DNA of 32,000 bases from Candidatus Paracaedimonas acanthamoebae. Lineage in GTDB: Bacteria; Pseudomonadota; Alphaproteobacteria; Caedimonadales; Caedimonadaceae. The first letter of the stretch is position 1. Each line of letters begins with the position of its first letter. Location of the stretch: NCBI GenBank assembly GCA_000743035.1, contig CP008936.1, forward strand, positions 600,001 through 632,000, in the 5' to 3' direction. The notes beneath the pieces were generated by a model that had not been told where the DNA came from, ran no database searches, and saw only the letters and a list, made by a program, of their open reading frames with translations. The position numbers were made by a program, and so were the translations under genes. Of the stretch, positions 5,534 through 22,622 are shown one piece after another.

Positions 5534-6235
5534 CTATGATTGTTTTTTGTAATAGTATGGTATAGTAAGTTTTTTAGTCAAAGTTTCAAAACCAGCTGGT
5601 AAACCTTTTTCAAAGCCATACTTAGGAAAATAATGTTGTGTTGCTCCTGCTCGAAGATCGGAAAAAACATAATCAACAGATGTTTGCGGTAAGATAAAAT
5701 GTTTTAAAAAGGCATCTAAGCATACTTGAGCATAGCCTTTTCCTCCAGCGTTGAAGCCTGAGTTAACACTTTCAATAACAATGTAGTCTTTTTGGTCTTC
5801 TTGTTTAGGAAAATATTGATATGTAGCTGTAGAGAGGTAGCAAGCTGAGTCTTTTCTGACATCTGAGAACCCTGTTAAACCGCTCAAGCAAATTTTTAAG
5901 GGATTCGTTTTTCCATCATAAAGGGCAAACTCACCATAAGGTGAGGATTTCCGACAAACATTGGCGATAATAAATTCTTCTTCTTGCTTAGTTTTAGGGT
6001 TTATACATGAAACCTCTTTTAAGGTGATCCAAGGAAAATTTTGCTCAGGTGACGCAATATATTGCTCAAGGTTGAGATCTGGTTGTGAGGCCCGATTCCT
6101 TGCAGCTATTACAGTTTCCTCATCAAGATAACCAAACCAGTTATTATCTTCTCGAGCATTGGTCGCAAATGCATGCCCAGTTAATGTAAAGGCTAATAAG
6201 ATGGCAAAGTTCCTAAATTTCAATTTTTTCTCCAT
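5534..6235 (-). CDS. Secreted GNAT-like (acyl-CoA N-acyltransferase fold) protein, function unknown
   Basis: Signal peptide MEKKLKFRNFAILLAFTLTGHAFA/TNA. The C-terminal half resembles GNAT motif A/B: IVIESVNSGFNAGGKGYAQVCLDAFLKHF ... SDLRAGATQHYFPKYGFEKG. The family call rests on motif resemblance only. Confidence 0.6.
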   Translation of the reverse strand: MEKKLKFRNFAILLAFTLTGHAFATNAREDNNWFGYLDEETVIAARNRASQPDLNLEQYIASPEQNFPWITLKEVSCINPKTKQEEEFIIANVCRKSSPYGEFALYDGKTNPLKICLSGLTGFSDVRKDSACYLSTATYQYFPKQEDQKDYIVIESVNSGFNAGGKGYAQVCLDAFLKHFILPQTSVDYVFSDLRAGATQHYFPKYGFEKGLPAGFETLTKKLTIPYYYKKQS

Positions 6236-6954
6236 TGTCTAAAGAATAAGTTATTAAACAAAAAGGTTAACAATTATTTTGTCTTCCCTTAAGGATAAGC
6301 ATTTTAATAAAAATAGACTTTTTGTCAAATAAAATTTGTTTAGCTTTATTATAAGATAATTGAGCAAATGGTTAGGCCGCAGCTACATTAGTCATTCGAG
6401 AATTGTTAAGAAGAGTTTTTTATTTCTTGAGAAAAATAGTGTTTTAACTATTTCCTTTATATAAAAAACTTGATTTATGAAACTAAATATGGTAGCCTGA
6501 TAGTATAGATGGTTAGATGATTTTCATCTCTTATGAAAACCTAAAAGATCTTCATAATTCTTCCATAAAATCCAACTGTCTCATTAAAATAATAAGGGAA
6601 TTAAAAAAACCTAAGTTATTAAAGAGAATAAGCCTTTTAACGCTCTTTTTGAGCGAATACCCTCTCTTTGCCTTTTTCAGAGGTCGATTCCTCTGCAAAA
6701 AGAATAACTGAAGCGTCCTGATCAAACGCTTAACCCAGAAAATTTCGAATCTCTGGGGAGAGAAAAAGGTATGCCAACAGTTGAGTAAATGAGGATAATG
6801 ATAGGCATGTCGTGAAATGGAAGAAACGATCTGTCCTGACCTCAACCTCTCAAACAAAAGCAAAAGGCTTCCCAATTCCTTCCTGTGCACAAACTGCACA
6901 GGAAGGGAGAGGGGAAAACAATAAAAACAAGAAACATAAACAAGGAGATATAAA

Positions 6955-7281
6955 ATGATAAAAACACATGAACAAAAACCAAATGGTAAGAAAGAACTAG
7001 GGGCACAAAAACGTCTGGACCCATCAACAATCAAGAAAAGGGTGCTCAGTGCTGTTTTGAGGAGAGAAACAGGTTGTTTCAATCCCTCTCAAAGAGACAA
7101 ACGTATGAAGGTCTATCAACAGAGCTTCAACCGCTGGTGGGACCTAATCTTCGATCAGAAAGAAAAGCATCGCATGGCGATAAGAAAGATCTTGAAGTCG
7201 CATGAGATCCTAGGCACAGGGCCTAGGATGACGAAAGAAGAGAGTACTTTGAACTTATTGGTAAGAACTGAGTGGAAATGA
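6955..7281 (+). CDS. Hypothetical basic 108-aa protein encoded inside repeat copy A
   Basis: Consensus SD AAGGAGA lies 6 nt before the ATG (caaggagatataaaATG). The product is Lys/Arg-rich with no recognisable domain. Its last 29 codons lie in the shared 3' module, but substitutions there against copy B are mostly non-synonymous, so coding status is doubtful. Confidence 0.3.
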   Translation: MIKTHEQKPNGKKELGAQKRLDPSTIKKRVLSAVLRRETGCFNPSQRDKRMKVYQQSFNRWWDLIFDQKEKHRMAIRKILKSHEILGTGPRMTKEESTLNLLVRTEWK

Positions 7282-7305
7282 AAATGAATAAAGAAAAGAA
7301 AAAAA

Positions 7306-7410
7306 ATGTTGGGAAATAAAAAGTTATTAAATGACGAGCTTCAGGCCTATCACCCACAAAGTCATCCTTGGGCTTGTCCCAAGGATCTCAGGCAACCAGG
7401 AAAACGTTGA
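7306..7410 (+). CDS. Candidate 34-aa small ORF in the repeat 3' module (copy A)
   Basis: MLGNKKLLNDELQAYHPQSHPWACPKDLRQPGKR. The homologous position in copy B (22331-22465) keeps the ATG and frame without indels (MFGNKGMKTDELQAYHPQSHPRTCVGDLRQPG...). Across 34 aligned codons there are 5 synonymous and about 11 non-synonymous differences. There is no SD in copy A and an AGGA in copy B. Confidence 0.2.
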   Translation: MLGNKKLLNDELQAYHPQSHPWACPKDLRQPGKR

Positions 7411-7789
7411 AAGGTGCCATAAGGTTCTGAGCGTGCGGAAAAGGTATGGACCAAGGGGAGACGTGTGAAATGGTTGGGACTGTAGGGTGGATAAAGAAGA
7501 AAGACACTTTTAGGGTTCTTTTTTGGCAAAAAAATGGAAGCATAGAACTTCATCGAAAAGTCTCAAGTATGTACAGGTATAGAAGGAACCAATAGGATGG
7601 CTTGAAATTAGAAAACAAAAAGAAAAAAATTAAGATTTAAGGGCAGTTTATTAATAATAATTTAAAATTTATCAAATAAACAGGGAGAAGCATAAAGAGC
7701 AATTTTTTAAAAAACATTTAGGGGGAAAGGTTTCACCTCTTGACCCTTTTAAAGATTGTTTTCTATGCTTGGCTGGAAATGGAGACGTT

Positions 7790-9730
7790 ATGACATATAT
7801 TAAACACGCCTATAAAGCAAGGCTCGCAACCTTAACATCAGAAAAGTATGGAGAGCTTTATACGCAATCAATTAAAAATACTGAAGTATTTTGGCGCGAG
7901 CAAGCACAGCGTATTACATGGATCAAGCCCTTTACCAAAGTTAAAGATACTTCTTTTTACGCTGAAGATTTTCGGATCAAGTGGTTTGAAGATGGCACTT
8001 TAAATGTTGCTGCGAATTGTCTTGATCGGCACTTAGTAGAACGTGGGGACCAAGTCGCCATTATTTGGGAAGGGGATGATCCTCAAAAATCCCAAAAGAT
8101 TACCTATCGAGAATTATATGAACAAGTTTGCAAGTGCGCAAATATTCTAAAAGGATTGGGTGTTGAGCGAGGCGATCGGGTGACGATTTACCTTCCAATG
8201 ATCCCCGAGGCTGCCGTTGCAATGTTGGCTTGTGCACGGATTGGTGCGATACATTCTGTTGTTTTTGGGGGATTCTCGCCTGAGTCATTAGCAGGTCGGA
8301 TTGTGGATTGCGATTCTAAACTCGTGATTACAGCCGATGAAGGCGTGCGTGGTGGTAAGCTTATTCCGCTGAAAAGAAATGTGGATGAGGCGTTAGCAAG
8401 GCCAGAGGTCACTTCAGTTGAATCTGTGCTTGTTATCAAACGTACGGGAAATGTCGTGCCTTTTATGCACGTAAGAGACCATTGGTATAACGAATTGATG
8501 GCCAAAGCTGCACATGAATGCGTGCCGGCTGAAATGGGAGCCGAAGATCCTTTATTTATTTTGTATACGTCGGGGTCAACAGGCAAACCTAAAGGGGTGT
8601 TGCATACAACGGGTGGATATTTAGTGTTTGCGTCTTTAACGCATCAGCAGATCTTTGACTATCATCCCGGTGACGTTTATTGGTGCTCCGCCGATGTAGG
8701 GTGGATTACAGGTCACAGCTATGTTCTTTATGGCCCGCTTGCAAATGGGGCAACCACCTTAATGTTCGAGGGTGTGCCGACCTACCCGGATGCATCTCGC
8801 TTCTGGCAGGTTATTGATAAACATCAGGTGAATATTTTTTATACTGCACCTACAGCCATTCGGTCGTTGATGCGAGAGGGGGATGAAGCGGTCAAAAAAA
8901 CGAAAAGACGTTCTTTAAGGCTTTTGGGGTCGGTTGGTGAGCCCATTAATCCTGAAGCTTGGGAATGGTACTATCGCATTGTGGGTGAAGAACGTTGCCC
9001 CATTATGGATACATGGTGGCAAACGGAGACGGGCGGTATTTTAATTACACCTCTCCCTGGTGTTCATGACCTTAAGCCAGGCTCTGCAACACAACCTTTC
9101 TTTGGTGCAAAGCCAGCGATTGTTGATCTTCAAGGAACCATCCTTGAAGGTGAAGCAGAAGGGGCTTTGGTTATGCTTGATTCATGGCCAGGACAAATGC
9201 GTTCCGTCTATGGGGATCATCAGCGCTTTATTGATACTTATTTTAAAACTTATCCCGGTATGTATTTTTCGGGAGATGGAGCGCGCCGAGATCAAGATGG
9301 CGATTATTGGATTACCGGACGAATTGATGATGTGATCAATGTTTCGGGGCACCGGCTCGGAACAGCTGAGGTTGAAAGTGCGTTAAATACGCATCCTAAA
9401 GTGGTTGAAACGGCTGTGGTTGGTTTTCCGCATGAGATTAAGGGGCAGGGGATTTATGCCTTTGTCACGCTTCATAAAGGTGAAAAACCTTCTGAAGAGC
9501 TGAAAAAAGAACTCATCCAAGAGGTCCGTAAACATATTGGGGCGATTGCGAGCCCTGACATCATTCAGTGGGCTCCAGGGCTTCCTAAAACTCGCTCAGG
9601 TAAAATCATGCGGCGCATTTTGCGGAAGATTGCTGCGAATGAAATTGATAGTTTAGGAGATATCTCGACATTGGCTGACCCTGGTGTTGTTGAGGAGTTG
9701 GTAAAGGAAAGAAATTTAAGATTTTTATAG
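7790..9730 (+). CDS. acs: Acetyl-CoA synthetase (AMP-forming)
   Basis: [34 protein letters not shown] and [12 protein letters not shown] prefer the ATG at 7790 (GGAGA 5 nt upstream) over the in-frame TTG at 7769 used by the ORF track. Confidence 0.95.
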
Positions 9731-18456: not shown

Positions 18457-18640
18457 GTTTTTTTGACCGAACTATTTGCCATCTAGAAGTTGCTCATTTT
18501 TTTTTACGGCTTTTTATGCTCGTTTAAAGTGATCAAAAACCCATCTTTGAGAGACATTAAATTATTTAAAACTTATGACTTAAGTCGGGCGATTGCCAGT
18601 TGAAAAAAACCTATTTTTCCTCTAGAAGGCGAGCGTAAGA
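18457..18640. repeat. Direct repeat R1 flanking the KGG gene (partner R2 at 19345-19528)
   Basis: Colinear match to R2. Shared blocks are gtttttttgaccgaacta/gctttttttgatcaaacta, gatcaaaaacc, ttatttaaaacttatga, ccagttgaaaaaa and agc(g/a)taag. Weaker similarity extends to about 18424 and 19284 (tgtcatat ... ttgtgtt(a/g)agc). Confidence 0.7.
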
Positions 18641-18737: not shown

Positions 18738-19169
18738 TTATTCCCCTCTACGGGATTTGCCACCTTTGTGTCCCATCTCAGCATAGCCTTCTGGCCCAAG
18801 CTGCTCTTTACGAGCTTCACCACCTTTGTGGCCAAGGTCTACGTAGCCTTCATGCCCTAACTGTTGTTTCCGGGTTTCGCCACCTTTGTGTCCCATCTCA
18901 GCATAGCCTTCTGGCCCAAGCTGCTCTTTGCGAGCTTCACCACCTTTGTGGCCAAGATCTACGTAGCCTTCATGCCCTAACTGTTGTTTCCGGGTTTCGC
19001 CACCTTTATGACCACGTTCAGCCATTCCTTCGTGGCCAGCCTTTTCAGCACTGGCTTTTCCCCCTTTAGAGGCAATTTCTTGTACCTTTTCATGGGGCAT
19101 AGAAGCAAAGCCTCTGTTCTCTGTACCTGAGGATGAGGATCGTCCTTGATTTTTTCTATTTTGTGCCAT
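18738..19169 (-). CDS. KGG-repeat stress-induced protein (YciG/GsiB-like)
   Basis: Reiterated 20-aa units GHKGGE(A/T)RK(E/Q)QLG(P/H)EGY(A/V)(E/D)(M/L), and an N-terminus SKGGKAS. A strong RBS AGGAGA lies 6 nt before the ATG. Confidence 0.85.
   Translation of the reverse strand: MAQNRKNQGRSSSSGTENRGFASMPHEKVQEIASKGGKASAEKAGHEGMAERGHKGGETRKQQLGHEGYVDLGHKGGEARKEQLGPEGYAEMGHKGGETRKQQLGHEGYVDLGHKGGEARKEQLGPEGYAEMGHKGGKSRRGE
18751..19007. repeat. In-frame tandem repeat inside the KGG gene, period 120 bp, about 2.1 copies
   Basis: 18751-18870 versus 18871-18990 differ at only about 4 positions (for example 18810 a/g and 18838 g/a). A third unit begins at 18991-19007. Confidence 0.95.
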
Positions 19170-19344: not shown

Positions 19345-19528
19345 GCTTTTTTTGATCAAACTAAGGCTTTTCAAAGCTTCTATTTGTTGATGGCTTCTCA
19401 GGTGCGTTTAATTTGATCAAAAACCTAACTCTTACGAGTTATTTAAAACTTATGATTTGAAATGAGTGATTACCAGTTGAAAAAAGACTAGCTTTGCTTC
19501 TAAAAGTTTAGCATAAGCACTTTAAGAC
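19345..19528. repeat. Direct repeat R2 flanking the KGG gene (partner of R1)
   Basis: See R1. The R1-to-R2 offset is 888 bp. Confidence 0.7.
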
Positions 19529-19553: not shown

Positions 19554-19997
19554 TCAGTTATGTTCAGGTTTTTGATGTGTCCACCAAGCTTCGTGAAGAT
19601 CATGAAAGTGACACATGATTTTTTCAACATGTAAACAAATCTCGCATTGATCTGAAAACAAAAGGTGGATTTCTCCATCTTTGTCTCCATGAATCGTTAA
19701 AAGATTTAAAGTTTTAGTTGGATCCTTAATGTCGATCCCTTTGTGGCGAACATGATGGACATGAGTAAAATGGAGGCCTGCATGCACTCGTGAATAAAGA
19801 GGTGTTCCAGTATGAAGTTGAGGACTTACTTCCCAACAAAAACGGTTGGCAAGAATACTGAAATGCTTACCTTCTTTATTATAATAGAAAGCTGTCATTG
19901 GAATGAGGCTATCTTGAAGATAAGCCCCCATAATTTTGAGGTCTTGTTGATCCTCAGCCCGCAGCTTTAAGGGGGTGTGTTGTTGTTGAAATGTCAT
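19554..19997 (-). CDS. DUF2948-family protein (conserved alphaproteobacterial murA neighbour)
   Basis: [33 protein letters not shown]...ANRFCWE matches the usual DUF2948 N-terminus. I prefer the ATG at 19997 over the ORF-track start at 20066, which adds 23 residues lying entirely inside murA. Confidence 0.75.
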   Translation of the reverse strand: MTFQQQHTPLKLRAEDQQDLKIMGAYLQDSLIPMTAFYYNKEGKHFSILANRFCWEVSPQLHTGTPLYSRVHAGLHFTHVHHVRHKGIDIKDPTKTLNLLTIHGDKDGEIHLLFSDQCEICLHVEKIMCHFHDLHEAWWTHQKPEHN

Positions 19998-21279
19998 ATG
20001 TAGAGCCCTCCCTGACTCGTTCAATAATAGCACCGCAAGCACCAAGCTTATTTTCCAGTTCTTCATATCCTCGGTCGAGATGATAAACGCGGTTGACTAT
20101 TGTTTCTTCAGAAGACGTTAACGCCGCTAGAACCAAAGAGACAGATGCCCGAAGGTCTGTCGCCATAACGGGTGCGCCTTTTAAGCTATTCACGCCTTTA
20201 ATAATCGCTGTATTTCCTTTGATTGTGATATCAGCCCCCATGCGAGCAAGCTCTGGGACATGCATAAAACGATTTTCCCAAATTGTTTCGGTGATTAAAG
20301 ACGTGCCCTCGGCAACACATGCTAATGCCATGATTTGTGCTTGTAAATCTGTTGCAAAGCCTGGGTAAGGATCTGTGGTCACTTCAACAGCTTTAAGTTT
20401 GTGTGAAGGGCCTGTGGCAATAAATCCTTGAGCGGTCTTTTTGAAAGTCATTCCCATAGCTTCAAGAGCTTGAGAAGTTGTTGGAATCAACGCTAAGTCA
20501 GTCCCAATAAGTTCAACTTCACCGCCTGTAATCCCTGCAGCCATAGCATATGTGCCTGTCTCAATGCGGTCAGGGAGAACAGAATAGGTGGTACCATGAA
20601 GGCTTGAAACACCTGTAATGGTTAAAATAGGGGTGCCAACACCTTCAATTTTTGCTCCCATAGCTTGGAGACAGTGCGCAAGATCTGTGATCTCAGGTTC
20701 AACTGCGCAGTTTAATAAACGGGTGGTTCCCTGGGCTAAAACAGCTGCCATAAGAATATTTTCGGTGCCAGTAACAGTTACCACTGGGAACGAGAATTCT
20801 GCTCCTACAAGACCATTTTGGGTTTGAGCAATGACATACCCATCTTCAAGAGTAATCTTAGCTCCTAACGCTTCTAATCCTTTGAGATGAATATCAACAG
20901 GGCGACTTCCAATAGCGCATCCTCCTGGAAGTGAAACTTTAGCATAGCCAGTTCTCGCTAAAAGAGGCCCCAAAACAAGGAAAGAGGCGCGCATTTTGCG
21001 CACAAGGTCATAAGGGGCTTCGGGAAGGATGGGACCTTGAGCATGGAAAGTTGCCTGGTGTTCACCAATAGCTTGACCTTCATAAGTGGTTTTGACGCCA
21101 AGATGGCTCAGAACACTGCCAAGCGTGAAGACATCCGCAAGCTGCGGCAGATTTTTTAAAACCAGAGGTTCTTTGGTTAAGAGACTTGTGCACATTAAAG
21201 GAAGAGCTGCATTTTTAGCGCCCGAGATGCGAATTTTTCCAGAAAGTGACTGACCGCCTATAATTTTAATCTTATCCAT
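19954..21279 (-). CDS. murA: UDP-N-acetylglucosamine 1-carboxyvinyltransferase
   Basis: [29 protein letters not shown], the active-site region [16 protein letters not shown], and [14 protein letters not shown]. Confidence 0.97.
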
Positions 21280-21930: not shown

Positions 21931-22448
21931 CTTGATTTTTGTATCATGATATGGTAGCCTGGTAATAGATGGTCAGAGATGATTCTCTTCCTTATTAAGA
22001 CTTAAAAAATCTTGATAACCCTTTTACTCAGTTTCTGAATCCATCCCATAAGAAAAGAAGAATAAGACAGGGATAAAAACCTCAATTATTAAACAATAAA
22101 AGACCTTTTAACGCTCTACTTCAGCGAATGCCCTCTCTTTGCCTGATGAAAAGGCGGGGGTAGGCATAGAAAAGGAGGGAGTTTAGTGGAGAACATCGAA
22201 TGGCGATGGGAGAGATCTTTCGGTTCCTTGAGATCCTAGGCACAGGGCCTAGGATGACGAGAACAAAGGAGCTTGGAACTCAGAGGTGAGGTCTGAGTGG
22301 GAATTGAAATGAATAAAGAAAGGAAGAAAAATGTTTGGCAACAAAGGAATGAAAACTGACGAGCTTCAGGCCTATCACCCACAAAGTCATCCCCGGACTT
22401 GTGTCGGGGATCTTAGGCAACCAGGGGATGCTGAAAGGTGCCAAGATA
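21931..22448 (+). repeat. Bipartite intergenic repeat, short copy B. The 5' module is 21931-22144, the 49-bp middle is 22145-22193, and the 3' module is 22194-22448.
   Basis: Colinear with copy A (6469-7425). It contains the same 8-bp hairpin (22234-22254) and the covarying hairpin (22389-22411). Confidence 0.85.
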
Positions 22449-22465
22449 ATCAATTTTTAACATGA
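22331..22465 (+). CDS. Candidate 44-aa small ORF in the repeat 3' module (copy B)
   Basis: MFGNKGMKTDELQAYHPQSHPRTCVGDLRQPGDAERCQDNQFLT. AGGA lies about 7 nt upstream. It is the positional homologue of 7306-7410. Confidence 0.2.
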   Translation: MFGNKGMKTDELQAYHPQSHPRTCVGDLRQPGDAERCQDNQFLT

Positions 22466-22622
22466 TAATGATTAAAGAACGTCAAGAGGAAAAAATGGTG
22501 AGAAAAATAGAACAAAAAACAAATAAGCTTTTATTGGATGAGTTTAGCTTCATCCTCAATAACGCTTTAAGAATTAACCAAAAAGCAAGCTGGCTTTTTG
22601 AATGAAGCCAAGGTAAAAATAA

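Follow-up and report, generated by a model that had tools for sequence, protein, structure and literature searches.

The DNA analysed here, called the window below, is a stretch of 32,000 nucleotides from Candidatus Paracaedimonas acanthamoebae (contig CP008936.1, positions 600,001 to 632,000). Among its genes are pyrG, kdsA, acs, murA, dcd and gdh, the last encoding an NAD-glutamate dehydrogenase of 1628 aa whose best matches are metagenome proteins (83-92%) and a protein of 'Caedibacter sp. 37-49' (82%). Upstream of acs lies copy A, and upstream of gdh copy B, of a repeated intergenic element, each on the coding strand of the gene that follows. The copies belong to a family that begins with a conserved promoter signature, carries hairpins that covary and, in its complete form, encodes the conserved core of a small protein.

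The pair was first noticed by eye, and the original prediction described two modules that align colinearly on the same strand at roughly 70-85% identity and share exact blocks of 31 and 35 nt. The measured identities are 72-85%. With blastn, module 1 (6469-6673 against 21931-22144) is 72% identical over 203 nt (E 1e-21) and module 2 (7168-7425 against 22194-22448) is 80% identical over 255 nt (E 4e-58). Both exact blocks are present, the 31-nt block at 7204 and 22230 and the 35-nt block at 7333 and 22358, and the individual repeat blocks are given in Table 1. The spacing between the modules, 494 bp in copy A (6674-7167) versus 49 bp in copy B (22145-22193), was also as described. So was the purine-rich plus strand, with 61% purine at 6469-7700 and 59% at 21931-22620 versus 51% for the whole window. 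ARAGORN detected no tRNA or tmRNA gene in the window, and no Rfam covariance model matched it at the gathering score; at E<=10 the best matches in both repeat regions reached 7-24 bits against thresholds of 37-163. The earlier failure to recognise a known RNA by motif is in agreement with these searches.

To find the element in relatives we used the pattern CCTTTTAACGCTCTNNTTNAGNGAAT, the core common to copies A, B and one relative. It gave six copies in the genome of 'Caedibacter' sp. 38-128, the one genome scanned, and 23 metagenome loci, and copies with a variant core were reached through relatives of the small open reading frame (ORF) described below. The loci from relatives, whose copies were compared with copies A and B, are designated by L-numbers. 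Altogether 22 distinct copies were collected from several related genomes, as the expectation of further copies had it, and 21-22 distinct 5' modules were aligned; a hidden Markov model of the 5' module finds only copies A and B within the window. The hosts are the Holosporales relatives 'Caedibacter' sp. 37-49 and 38-128, and Ca. Paracaedimonas, and the family is confined to this small group of alphaproteobacteria that live with amoebae. The original prediction would have yielded to a known insertion sequence (IS), prophage or decayed gene, and none appeared: plasmid and phage collections gave no blastn match to the element, and viral contigs gave no match to the core motif of its 5' domain. 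The genome papers on these symbionts that were checked speak of repetitiveness only in general terms. An exact 20-mer from the 35-nt block had no match in a scan of genome contigs, and this block, on that evidence, is specific to this genome and not conserved in relatives. Four independent metagenome assemblies of close relatives (L001, L002/L003, L004, L007) end 280-570 nt upstream of gdh, beside the site of the element, which suggests that the repeat breaks assemblies.

The 5' edge of the element is a promoter signature. Similarity between copies starts about 10 nt upstream of the -35 box and the flanks are unrelated. TTGAnn, exactly 17 nt and TAnnnT are found in all 22 copies, with TGn directly before the -10 box in 21 of them. 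Within the -10 box only the T, A and T never change, the middle three bases being variable (GCC, GTG, GTC, TGG, CAC), and the distance from the promoter to a GATGG anchor is constant across copies. To judge from the alignment, this pattern of conservation is as expected of a selected extended -10 promoter of the sigma-70 type, not of a transposon end. The predicted transcription starts lie near 6505 in copy A and near 21967 in copy B. A generic promoter scan missed the site because only 7 of the 12 consensus bases match. Sigma-32 and sigma-54 promoters were also considered and rejected, as their spacing and motifs do not fit. A weak resemblance between the ends of the element had been noted (tggtagcct and tggcacctt). 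These do not form a terminal inverted repeat, as tggtagcct overlaps the -10 box and tggcacctt makes up the 3' strand of the predicted closing stem of the 3' domain. Upstream of the promoter, L005 (8180-8250), L032, L014, L038 and L044 also share some 70 nt of AT-rich sequence (ttattgatttgtattgataaaat...tttttgggatgattttt), which is absent from copies A and B and may be an UP element or the site of a regulator.

The promoter is followed by a constant 5' domain, M1, of about 165 nt. RNAalifold on the alignment of 21 sequences predicts a consensus fold of 27 pairs in five helices, in which a terminal stem (GGUCAGAGA with UCUCUUUGCC) is closed around three further stem-loops. The most conserved stretch is CCTTTTAACGCTCT (6633-6646 in copy A), behind which come a small hairpin and then a tail rich in C and U, and CCUUUUAACGCUCU is the invariant core of the domain. 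Pairing is kept in 96.3% of the cells, against about 40% in controls with slid partners. The covariation score is 0.153 versus 0.113 in shuffles (none of 500 as high), and 12 cells are changed on both sides versus 4.7 in shuffles. The P4 pair is GC 13 times, GU 5 times and AU 3 times, and P1 is rich in G-U pairs, which would be A-C on the opposite strand; for these reasons the M1 structure, if real, is on the plus strand. We regard the support for structure in M1, as read from these alignments, as modest. As a coding sequence M1 was rejected, since the 64-aa ORF at 6517-6711 is broken in other copies by indels of 1, 2 and 4 nt and by loss of the ATG. Other candidates that did not hold were a long-range pairing of the 5' UGGUAGCCUGG with the 3' CCAGG...GGUGCCA, which is possible in copies A and B, is lost in L026, L005 and L013 and overlaps the -10, and an rRNA-type boxA reading of GCTCTTTTTGAG, given that the variant CTACTTCAGC keeps the hairpin and loses the boxA sequence. 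The complement of the M1 core (AGAGCGTTAAAAGG) was sought as a target in the window; a single 10-bp match lies in the tail of the copy A U unit and is not conserved across copies.

Strong covariation is found in the 3' domain, M2, of about 250 nt. It is built from two hairpin units, a forward unit U of about 70 nt (GTCATCC-stem-CTTGT-stem-GGATCTCAGGCAACC...GGTGCCA) and a related unit R, which lies upstream and is inverted. In copy A, M2 begins just past the end of the ORF core, and a central hairpin and an A-rich stretch (about 7279-7330) lie in it; a closing stem is predicted between UGGCG (7175-7179) and GUGCCA (7414-7419). Each of the two exact blocks overlaps a hairpin unit: the R hairpin lies within the block of 31 nt, and the last bases of the 35-nt block are the first of the U hairpin. 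Over 28 units the 9-bp stem is paired in 93.6% of cells, with both-side changes in 23 cells and a covariation score of 0.322 versus 0.147 in shuffles (0 of 500 as high). Structure in the unit hairpin is thus strongly supported. The substitutions in the units would give radical amino acid changes (R/W, E/K/G, P/V/T), so the constraint acts on the nucleic acid. The overall fold of M2 is weakly supported: RNAalifold on five sequences only gave 41 pairs, 10 of them changed on both sides, with covariation in the terminal stem. The block R-spacer-U is conserved whole in copies A and B, L012, L044 and L015, and partly in L026.

The units are found nowhere else in the DNA sampled. In the window and the loci from relatives, about 0.4 Mb, all 60 unit matches either follow an M1, at a distance of 30-1320 nt, or are on contigs that break off before reaching one, and full units always have the orientation of M1. 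The units are therefore parts of the element and not a genome-wide repetitive extragenic palindromic (REP) family. Several other readings were dropped. The mini-ORFs of M2 (7306-7410 and 22331-22465) do not look coding, with the start absent in L044 and L026 and an early stop in L015, and a hand count between copy A and L026 (58% amino acid identity at 80% nucleotide identity) is as expected without constraint on a protein. A pairing of L026 with L021 for the constraint test was discarded, because at about 88% identity throughout they are too close to separate constrained from neutral sequence. A CsrA sponge was considered on 13 GGA motifs versus about 8 expected in copy B (hand count), an excess that is too weak.

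The 494-bp segment between the modules of copy A had been taken as an insertion. It is better seen, from the relatives, as ancestral: blastn aligns 6487-6991 colinearly with L005 (the region upstream of gdh in species 37-49), L011, L012 and L032. The segment begins with a hairpin, P5, which is also present in other long-junction copies with stems that differ and are, by eye, still complementary (CAGAGG/CCTCTG, AAGGG/CCCTT, AGGGG/CCCCT, CAGGGG/CCTTGG). After a middle leader region comes a second hairpin of 16 pairs (-25.6 kcal/mol, RNAalifold on nine copies), in which the apical pairs change on both sides (GC/CG/UA/AU).

The hairpins are followed by a small ORF of 108 codons. The gap upstream of acs had been described as having no credible long coding sequence, which stands for long ones; a credible short one lies at 6955-7281. 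Its Shine-Dalgarno sequence (AGGGAG or AAGGAG) and ATG are aligned across copies. The basic conserved core comprises 68 aa (6955-7158), and the rest of the ORF (7159-7281) runs into module 2 and is not conserved. Over the first 62-68 codons the frame has no stop in nine of nine divergent copies, with a chance of about 0.01 per copy of such a stop-free frame, while frames 2 and 3 have 2-7 stops each. In the motif ..Q.F.R.W.L.F the residues Q, F, R, W, L and F are invariant in nine proteins, and a D is invariant too in a set of six. Third-position changes in the motif between copy A and L005 are synonymous by eye (TTC/TTT, CGC/CGT, GAC/GAT, CTA/CTG), and the overall dN/dS is 0.2-0.65. These features indicate that the small ORF is a genuine protein-coding gene with respect to its 68-aa core only. 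Those 68 residues are identical to the Ca. Paracaedimonas acanthamoebae hypothetical protein IM40_08840. Relatives number eight among 5.8 billion clusters and 20 among 1.84 billion representatives; they are short proteins throughout, and those with a name are called 'hypothetical'. No match was found in Pfam, NCBIfam, PHROG or PDB. Past residue 68 each copy has a different tail, the product of translated hairpin units, for example '...IPAFAGMT...' and '...CPEDLRQP...'.

Some copies have other genes in or next to this cassette. In the long copy after mutS (L044, 3363-3647) a gene of 94 aa of the GIY-YIG nuclease family lies between the small ORF and R, with the outer part of R replaced, and it may be an inserted selfish gene. 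In L039 (697-1459, minus strand) an IS-type transposase (DDE_Tnp_1/DUF4096) extends over the tail of the small ORF, apparently as a secondary insertion that does not belong to the family. The copy in L009 (369-731 in element coordinates) has, after M1, a different basic ORF of 120 aa with a strong AAGGAGG site, and the family ORF is absent. A comparison of this protein with the family by hhalign gave E 0.4, and it was rejected as a divergent member.

Compared over all copies, the bipartite repeat is better read as a three-part unit that consists of a 5' domain, an optional cassette of hairpins and ORF, and a 3' hairpin domain, with copy A as the complete form. The long form (promoter, M1, hairpins, ORF, M2) is seen in copy A, L012 and L044, and the short form (promoter, M1, M2) in copy B and L013. 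The ORF-less form keeps every invariant position of M1. The M1 variant CTACTTCAGCG of copy B recurs in L009 and L013, both from species 38-128 and both without the family ORF, and the order M1-R-U without an ORF is common to copy B and L013. The ORF-less form is therefore older than the split of these genomes. In L038, L040 and L043 a U unit stands directly after M1 and before the ORF cassette, which shows that the module order is not fixed. Table 1 gives the coordinates of the features in the window.

Table 1. Features of the element in copies A and B (window coordinates).
Feature	Position	Strand or orientation	Details
Copy A promoter	6470-6498	+	predicted; -35 TTGATT 6470-6475, 17-nt spacer ending TGg, -10 TAGCCT 6493-6498
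Copy A M1 (module 1)	6494-6679	+	nhmmer E 3e-41
Copy A M1 P1	~6511-6517 with 6667-6672	+	predicted helix
Copy A M1 P2	6531-6537 with 6551-6557	+	predicted helix
Copy A M1 P3	6591-6601 with 6610-6620	+	predicted helix
Copy A M1 P4	6641-6644 with 6652-6655	+	predicted helix
Copy A hairpin P5	6673-6702	+	UUUUU-CAGAGG-UCGAUU-CCUCUG-cAAAAA
Copy A middle leader region	6703-6877	+	~70% conserved with long copies of other species
Copy A pre-ORF hairpin	6878-6906	+	CCUUCCUGUGCA-caaac-UGCACAGGAAGG
Copy A small ORF	6955-7281	+	108 aa; ATG 6955; Shine-Dalgarno AAGGAG 6942-6947 after A-rich spacer
Copy A M2 (module 2)	7168-7425	+	nhmmer: U E 3e-18, R E 2e-4
Copy A R unit	7168-7234	reverse	within M2; hairpin 7207-7229
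Copy A U unit	7354-7424	forward	within M2; hairpin 7364-7386
Copy B promoter	21932-21960	+	predicted; TTGATT-17-TAGCCT with TGg
Copy B M1	21956-22150	+	nhmmer E 6e-50
Copy B M1 P1	21971-21979 with 22136-22143	+	predicted helix
Copy B M1 P2	21992-21998 with 22012-22018	+	predicted helix
Copy B M1 P4	22112-22115 with 22123-22126	+	predicted helix
Copy B M2	22194-22448	+	R 22194-22260, U 22379-22446; 49 nt after M1, without ORF core
Repeat block	6469-6505 / 21931-21967	same strand	78% identity (repeat search)
Repeat block	6604-6673 / 22075-22144	same strand	76% identity (repeat search)
Repeat block	7168-7234 / 22194-22260	same strand	85% identity (repeat search)
Repeat block	7247-7400 / 22272-22425	same strand	80% identity (repeat search)

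The element is found at the same loci across species: at acs in the window and L011, at gdh in the window and L005, at hppA in L040, L021 and L026, and at tolB in L025 and L046. The flanks at such loci are not alignable, yet M1 is 70-83% identical, which points to purifying selection. Near the genes downstream several other features were noted. The start of acs is probably the ATG at 7791, preceded by GGAGA, and not the listed TTG at 7769. About 55 nt upstream of this ATG are conserved with L011 (species 38-128) and a promoter-like TTGACC-18-TATGCT lies at 7740-7769, so that acs probably has a proximal promoter of its own. The ~190 nt directly upstream of gdh (22432-22620) are conserved with L001, L004 and L002/L003 independently of the repeat, with a hairpin TGGCTT...AAGCCA near 22590-22611, and are probably the leader of gdh itself.

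The existence of an RNA or small-gene element that had escaped description, as first suggested, is supported by the covarying secondary structure and by the genuine small ORF in the long copy. The base pairs kept by compensatory change are those expected of a structured RNA, and the interpretation that we favour, to which we give somewhat better than an even chance, is that of a lineage-specific family of independently transcribed, multi-domain structured RNA genes, with copy A as a coding isoform and copy B as a non-coding one. Each copy would use its own extended -10 promoter to make a long purine-rich RNA that opens with M1 and ends with M2. Complete copies would carry between these two domains the cassette with its two conserved hairpins and the basic, probably helical 68-aa core, which would make copy A the mRNA of a small protein with long structured untranslated regions (UTRs) and a candidate dual-function RNA. 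In copy B, where M1 is joined directly to M2, the product would be non-coding. M1 and M2 may serve RNA stability, translation control or riboregulation, and a possible role of the small protein is to recognise hairpins of its own family. With few or no plus-strand terminators in the four co-oriented loci scanned, transcription may also run on into the gene downstream (acs, gdh, hppA).

Several observations weigh against this interpretation. The existence of a transcript and the position of both its ends are predictions, and homology gives no function for the element. The unit hairpins occur in both orientations, which fits recognition of DNA as well as of RNA. For M1 the covariation term of RNAalifold is only -0.96 kcal/mol, both-side changes occur in 5 of the 27 pairs, and the shuffle tests are inflated because the sequences are related. 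Single-sequence folds have z-scores of about -1.8 to -1.9 (copy A M1, -1.9). In species 37-49 the M1 copies at different loci are 95% identical, a sign of recent duplication or gene conversion. The dN/dS of the small ORF (0.2-0.65) is not low overall, and the AlphaFold2 model, which suggests a helical hairpin for the core, is weak (pLDDT 58).

The same element can be explained in other ways that are not fully exclusive of one another, and each of the three rivals lacks at least one of its defining features among those that were looked for. It would be a non-autonomous mobile or mosaic repeat, of the type of miniature inverted-repeat transposable elements (MITE), bacterial interspersed mosaic elements (BIME), REPIN, BOX or Correia elements, if a recombinase encoded elsewhere used the hairpin units as recognition sites, with an incidental outward promoter and no function of its own. 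This would account for the mutual inversion of the units, for the near-identity of M1 within species 37-49, for the assemblies that break just upstream of gdh, for the GIY-YIG gene and IS in or beside some copies, and for a module order in which U may come right after M1 (L026, L038, L043) or after the ORF core (L005, L032), or R-U after M1 (copy B, L013). We nevertheless hold it to be unlikely. In about 22 copies neither terminal inverted repeats nor target duplications nor a transposase were seen, in agreement with the original prediction, which had also listed an integrase among the features missed. The 5' edge is a promoter signature and no conserved transposon end; in the 22 copies it is not repeated at the 3' end, where the boundary varies, and the repeat search found no inverted pair between the element ends in copy A or copy B. 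The only conserved ORF is the 68-aa orphan, which is under selection and has no match in Pfam, NCBIfam, PHROG or PDB. Copies are few (six pattern matches in the genome scanned), the same loci are filled in species whose proteins are only about 82% identical, and the units do not stray from the element in the sampled DNA, where no dispersal of the REP, BIME or REPIN kind was seen (~0.4 Mb).

A portable cis-regulatory leader, in which an upstream promoter and a long structured 5' UTR with an upstream ORF control acs, gdh, hppA and tolB, would agree with the position of the element upstream of, and co-oriented with, these genes in two or three species each. In the stretch that separates the element from the gene, the scans showed no plus-strand intrinsic terminator at three loci (copy A, copy B and L040) and a single weak candidate in L005. 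The copy in L025 lies between an upstream gene cluster and tolB and is co-oriented with both. A riboswitch or leader would however be always upstream of its gene and co-oriented, with an adjacent expression platform. Among 13 loci the downstream gene is co-oriented at nine and convergent at four (L009, L012/L023, L027, L036), a bias that was not significant (p about 0.13). The distance to the gene varies from 0.66 to 1.7 kb, acs probably has a proximal promoter of its own, and the L013 copy closes in a canonical terminator just before rimP. We find such a leader distinctly unlikely. That terminator (GGTGGGT-ccaaaaa-ACCCGCC-TTTTTATTT, 645-690 in element coordinates) lies ~10 nt before the start codon of rimP and may be an attenuator for the rimP-nusA-infB operon. 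A toxin-antitoxin-like repeat, whose small protein would be a toxin checked by the leader or by a small RNA, calls to mind LDR, hok/sok and Sib/Ibs, which are dispersed intergenic direct repeats of 0.5-1 kb with their own promoter, a structured mRNA and a small ORF. The element has the general look of those loci, and its ORF-less derivatives alongside intact copies would fit as well. Type I toxins have a hydrophobic stretch, however, and the protein core here is basic and by direct reading has none. The scans revealed no conserved antisense promoter in the element, with no promoter-like site on the minus strand within 6469-7425 or 21931-22448, and no PHROG match was consistent across copies; a toxin is in our opinion very improbable.

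An extension of the RNA gene family that we favour would make it a self-contained RNA-protein element, of a hitherto undescribed kind, in which the RNA encodes a small basic helical protein that recognises the RNA's own inverted hairpin units. The loops of the units, CUUGU and ACAAG/ACAGG, are mutually complementary and may 'kiss', much as in ColE1, where the likeness proposed is to the kissing loops of RNA I and RNA II and the small protein Rop. The ORF-less copies would then be decoys or partners, and the adjacent core genes of energy metabolism (acs, gdh, hppA and tolB), beside which the system would be kept, would be co-regulated by read-through or by RNA-RNA contacts. As a whole this model is speculative, and we think it improbable.

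Other features of the window touch the element less directly. The gene upstream of copy A, on the minus strand at 5534-6235 (233 aa), had been called GNAT-like, a name that does not hold: it has no Pfam or NCBIfam match, GNAT included. Its N-terminus is signal-peptide-like (MEKKLKFRNFAILLAFTLTGHAFA), and from its sequence it is more likely a secreted orphan protein than a GNAT. A tandem array with a 60-nt period lies at 18751-19050, with four overlapping 120-nt copies that are 65-100% identical to the reference copy. It sits within the minus-strand ORF 18738-19169 (143 aa), which looks like a small repeat-containing protein. A second direct-repeat pair (18492-18621 and 19376-19498; 55 + 60 nt, 73-78% identical) is located just downstream of this ORF and of the neighbouring minus-strand ORF 19554-20066, and the two may be paralogous genes with a common 3' region.

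To our knowledge, almost no regulatory RNAs or small proteins have been described from the obligate and facultative amoeba endosymbionts of the Holosporales. The family offers a concrete candidate that can be tested: an RNA of several domains, headed by a promoter and with a small ORF in some copies, which is kept at the same metabolic loci in different species. If expressed, it would be a new structured RNA family together with a new orphan small-protein family, and a case study of coding and non-coding isoforms of one gene that coexist. Since the 3' hairpin units are translated as ORF tails, a model of the family would also improve annotation.

Several known systems share parts of this architecture. 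The mosaic palindromic repeats (REP/BIME, REPIN, pneumococcal BOX with its boxA-boxB-boxC, the Correia elements of Neisseria and the Rickettsia palindromic elements) likewise have palindromic units in both orientations and in variable number and order. Transcription with neighbouring genes is possible in both cases, and in the Rickettsia elements the units are also translated as protein tails. The present element differs in that its units are found only behind M1 in the sampled DNA, with the full unit always in the orientation of M1, in that six pattern-matched copies were found in the genome scanned and not hundreds, and in its promoter and selected ORF; no RAYT-type transposase was seen in the loci examined from relatives. 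The E. coli LDR (ldr/rdl), hok/sok and Sib/Ibs 'QUAD' loci are alike as few-copy intergenic repeats of 0.5-1 kb with a promoter, a folded RNA and a small ORF, some of them degenerate. They are unlike it in sequence, and the protein of the element is ~68 aa, basic and not hydrophobic, with no evident antisense RNA gene. The cspA family similarly consists of paralogues for a protein of ~70 aa with their own promoters and unusually long conserved structured leaders; the element has by contrast no cold-shock domain in Pfam, a leader of ~450 nt, and ORF-less copies that are maintained. SgrS/SgrT, RNAIII/hld and SR1/SR1P are structured RNAs that also encode a small protein, and non-coding versions coexist with them. 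The element is much longer (0.5-1 kb) and multi-copy, and its likeness to these dual-function RNAs is one of architecture. The family is genuine and undescribed, and it is of a broadly familiar kind, that of dispersed promoter-bearing repeats with an RNA and a small ORF, in a small and little-studied clade.

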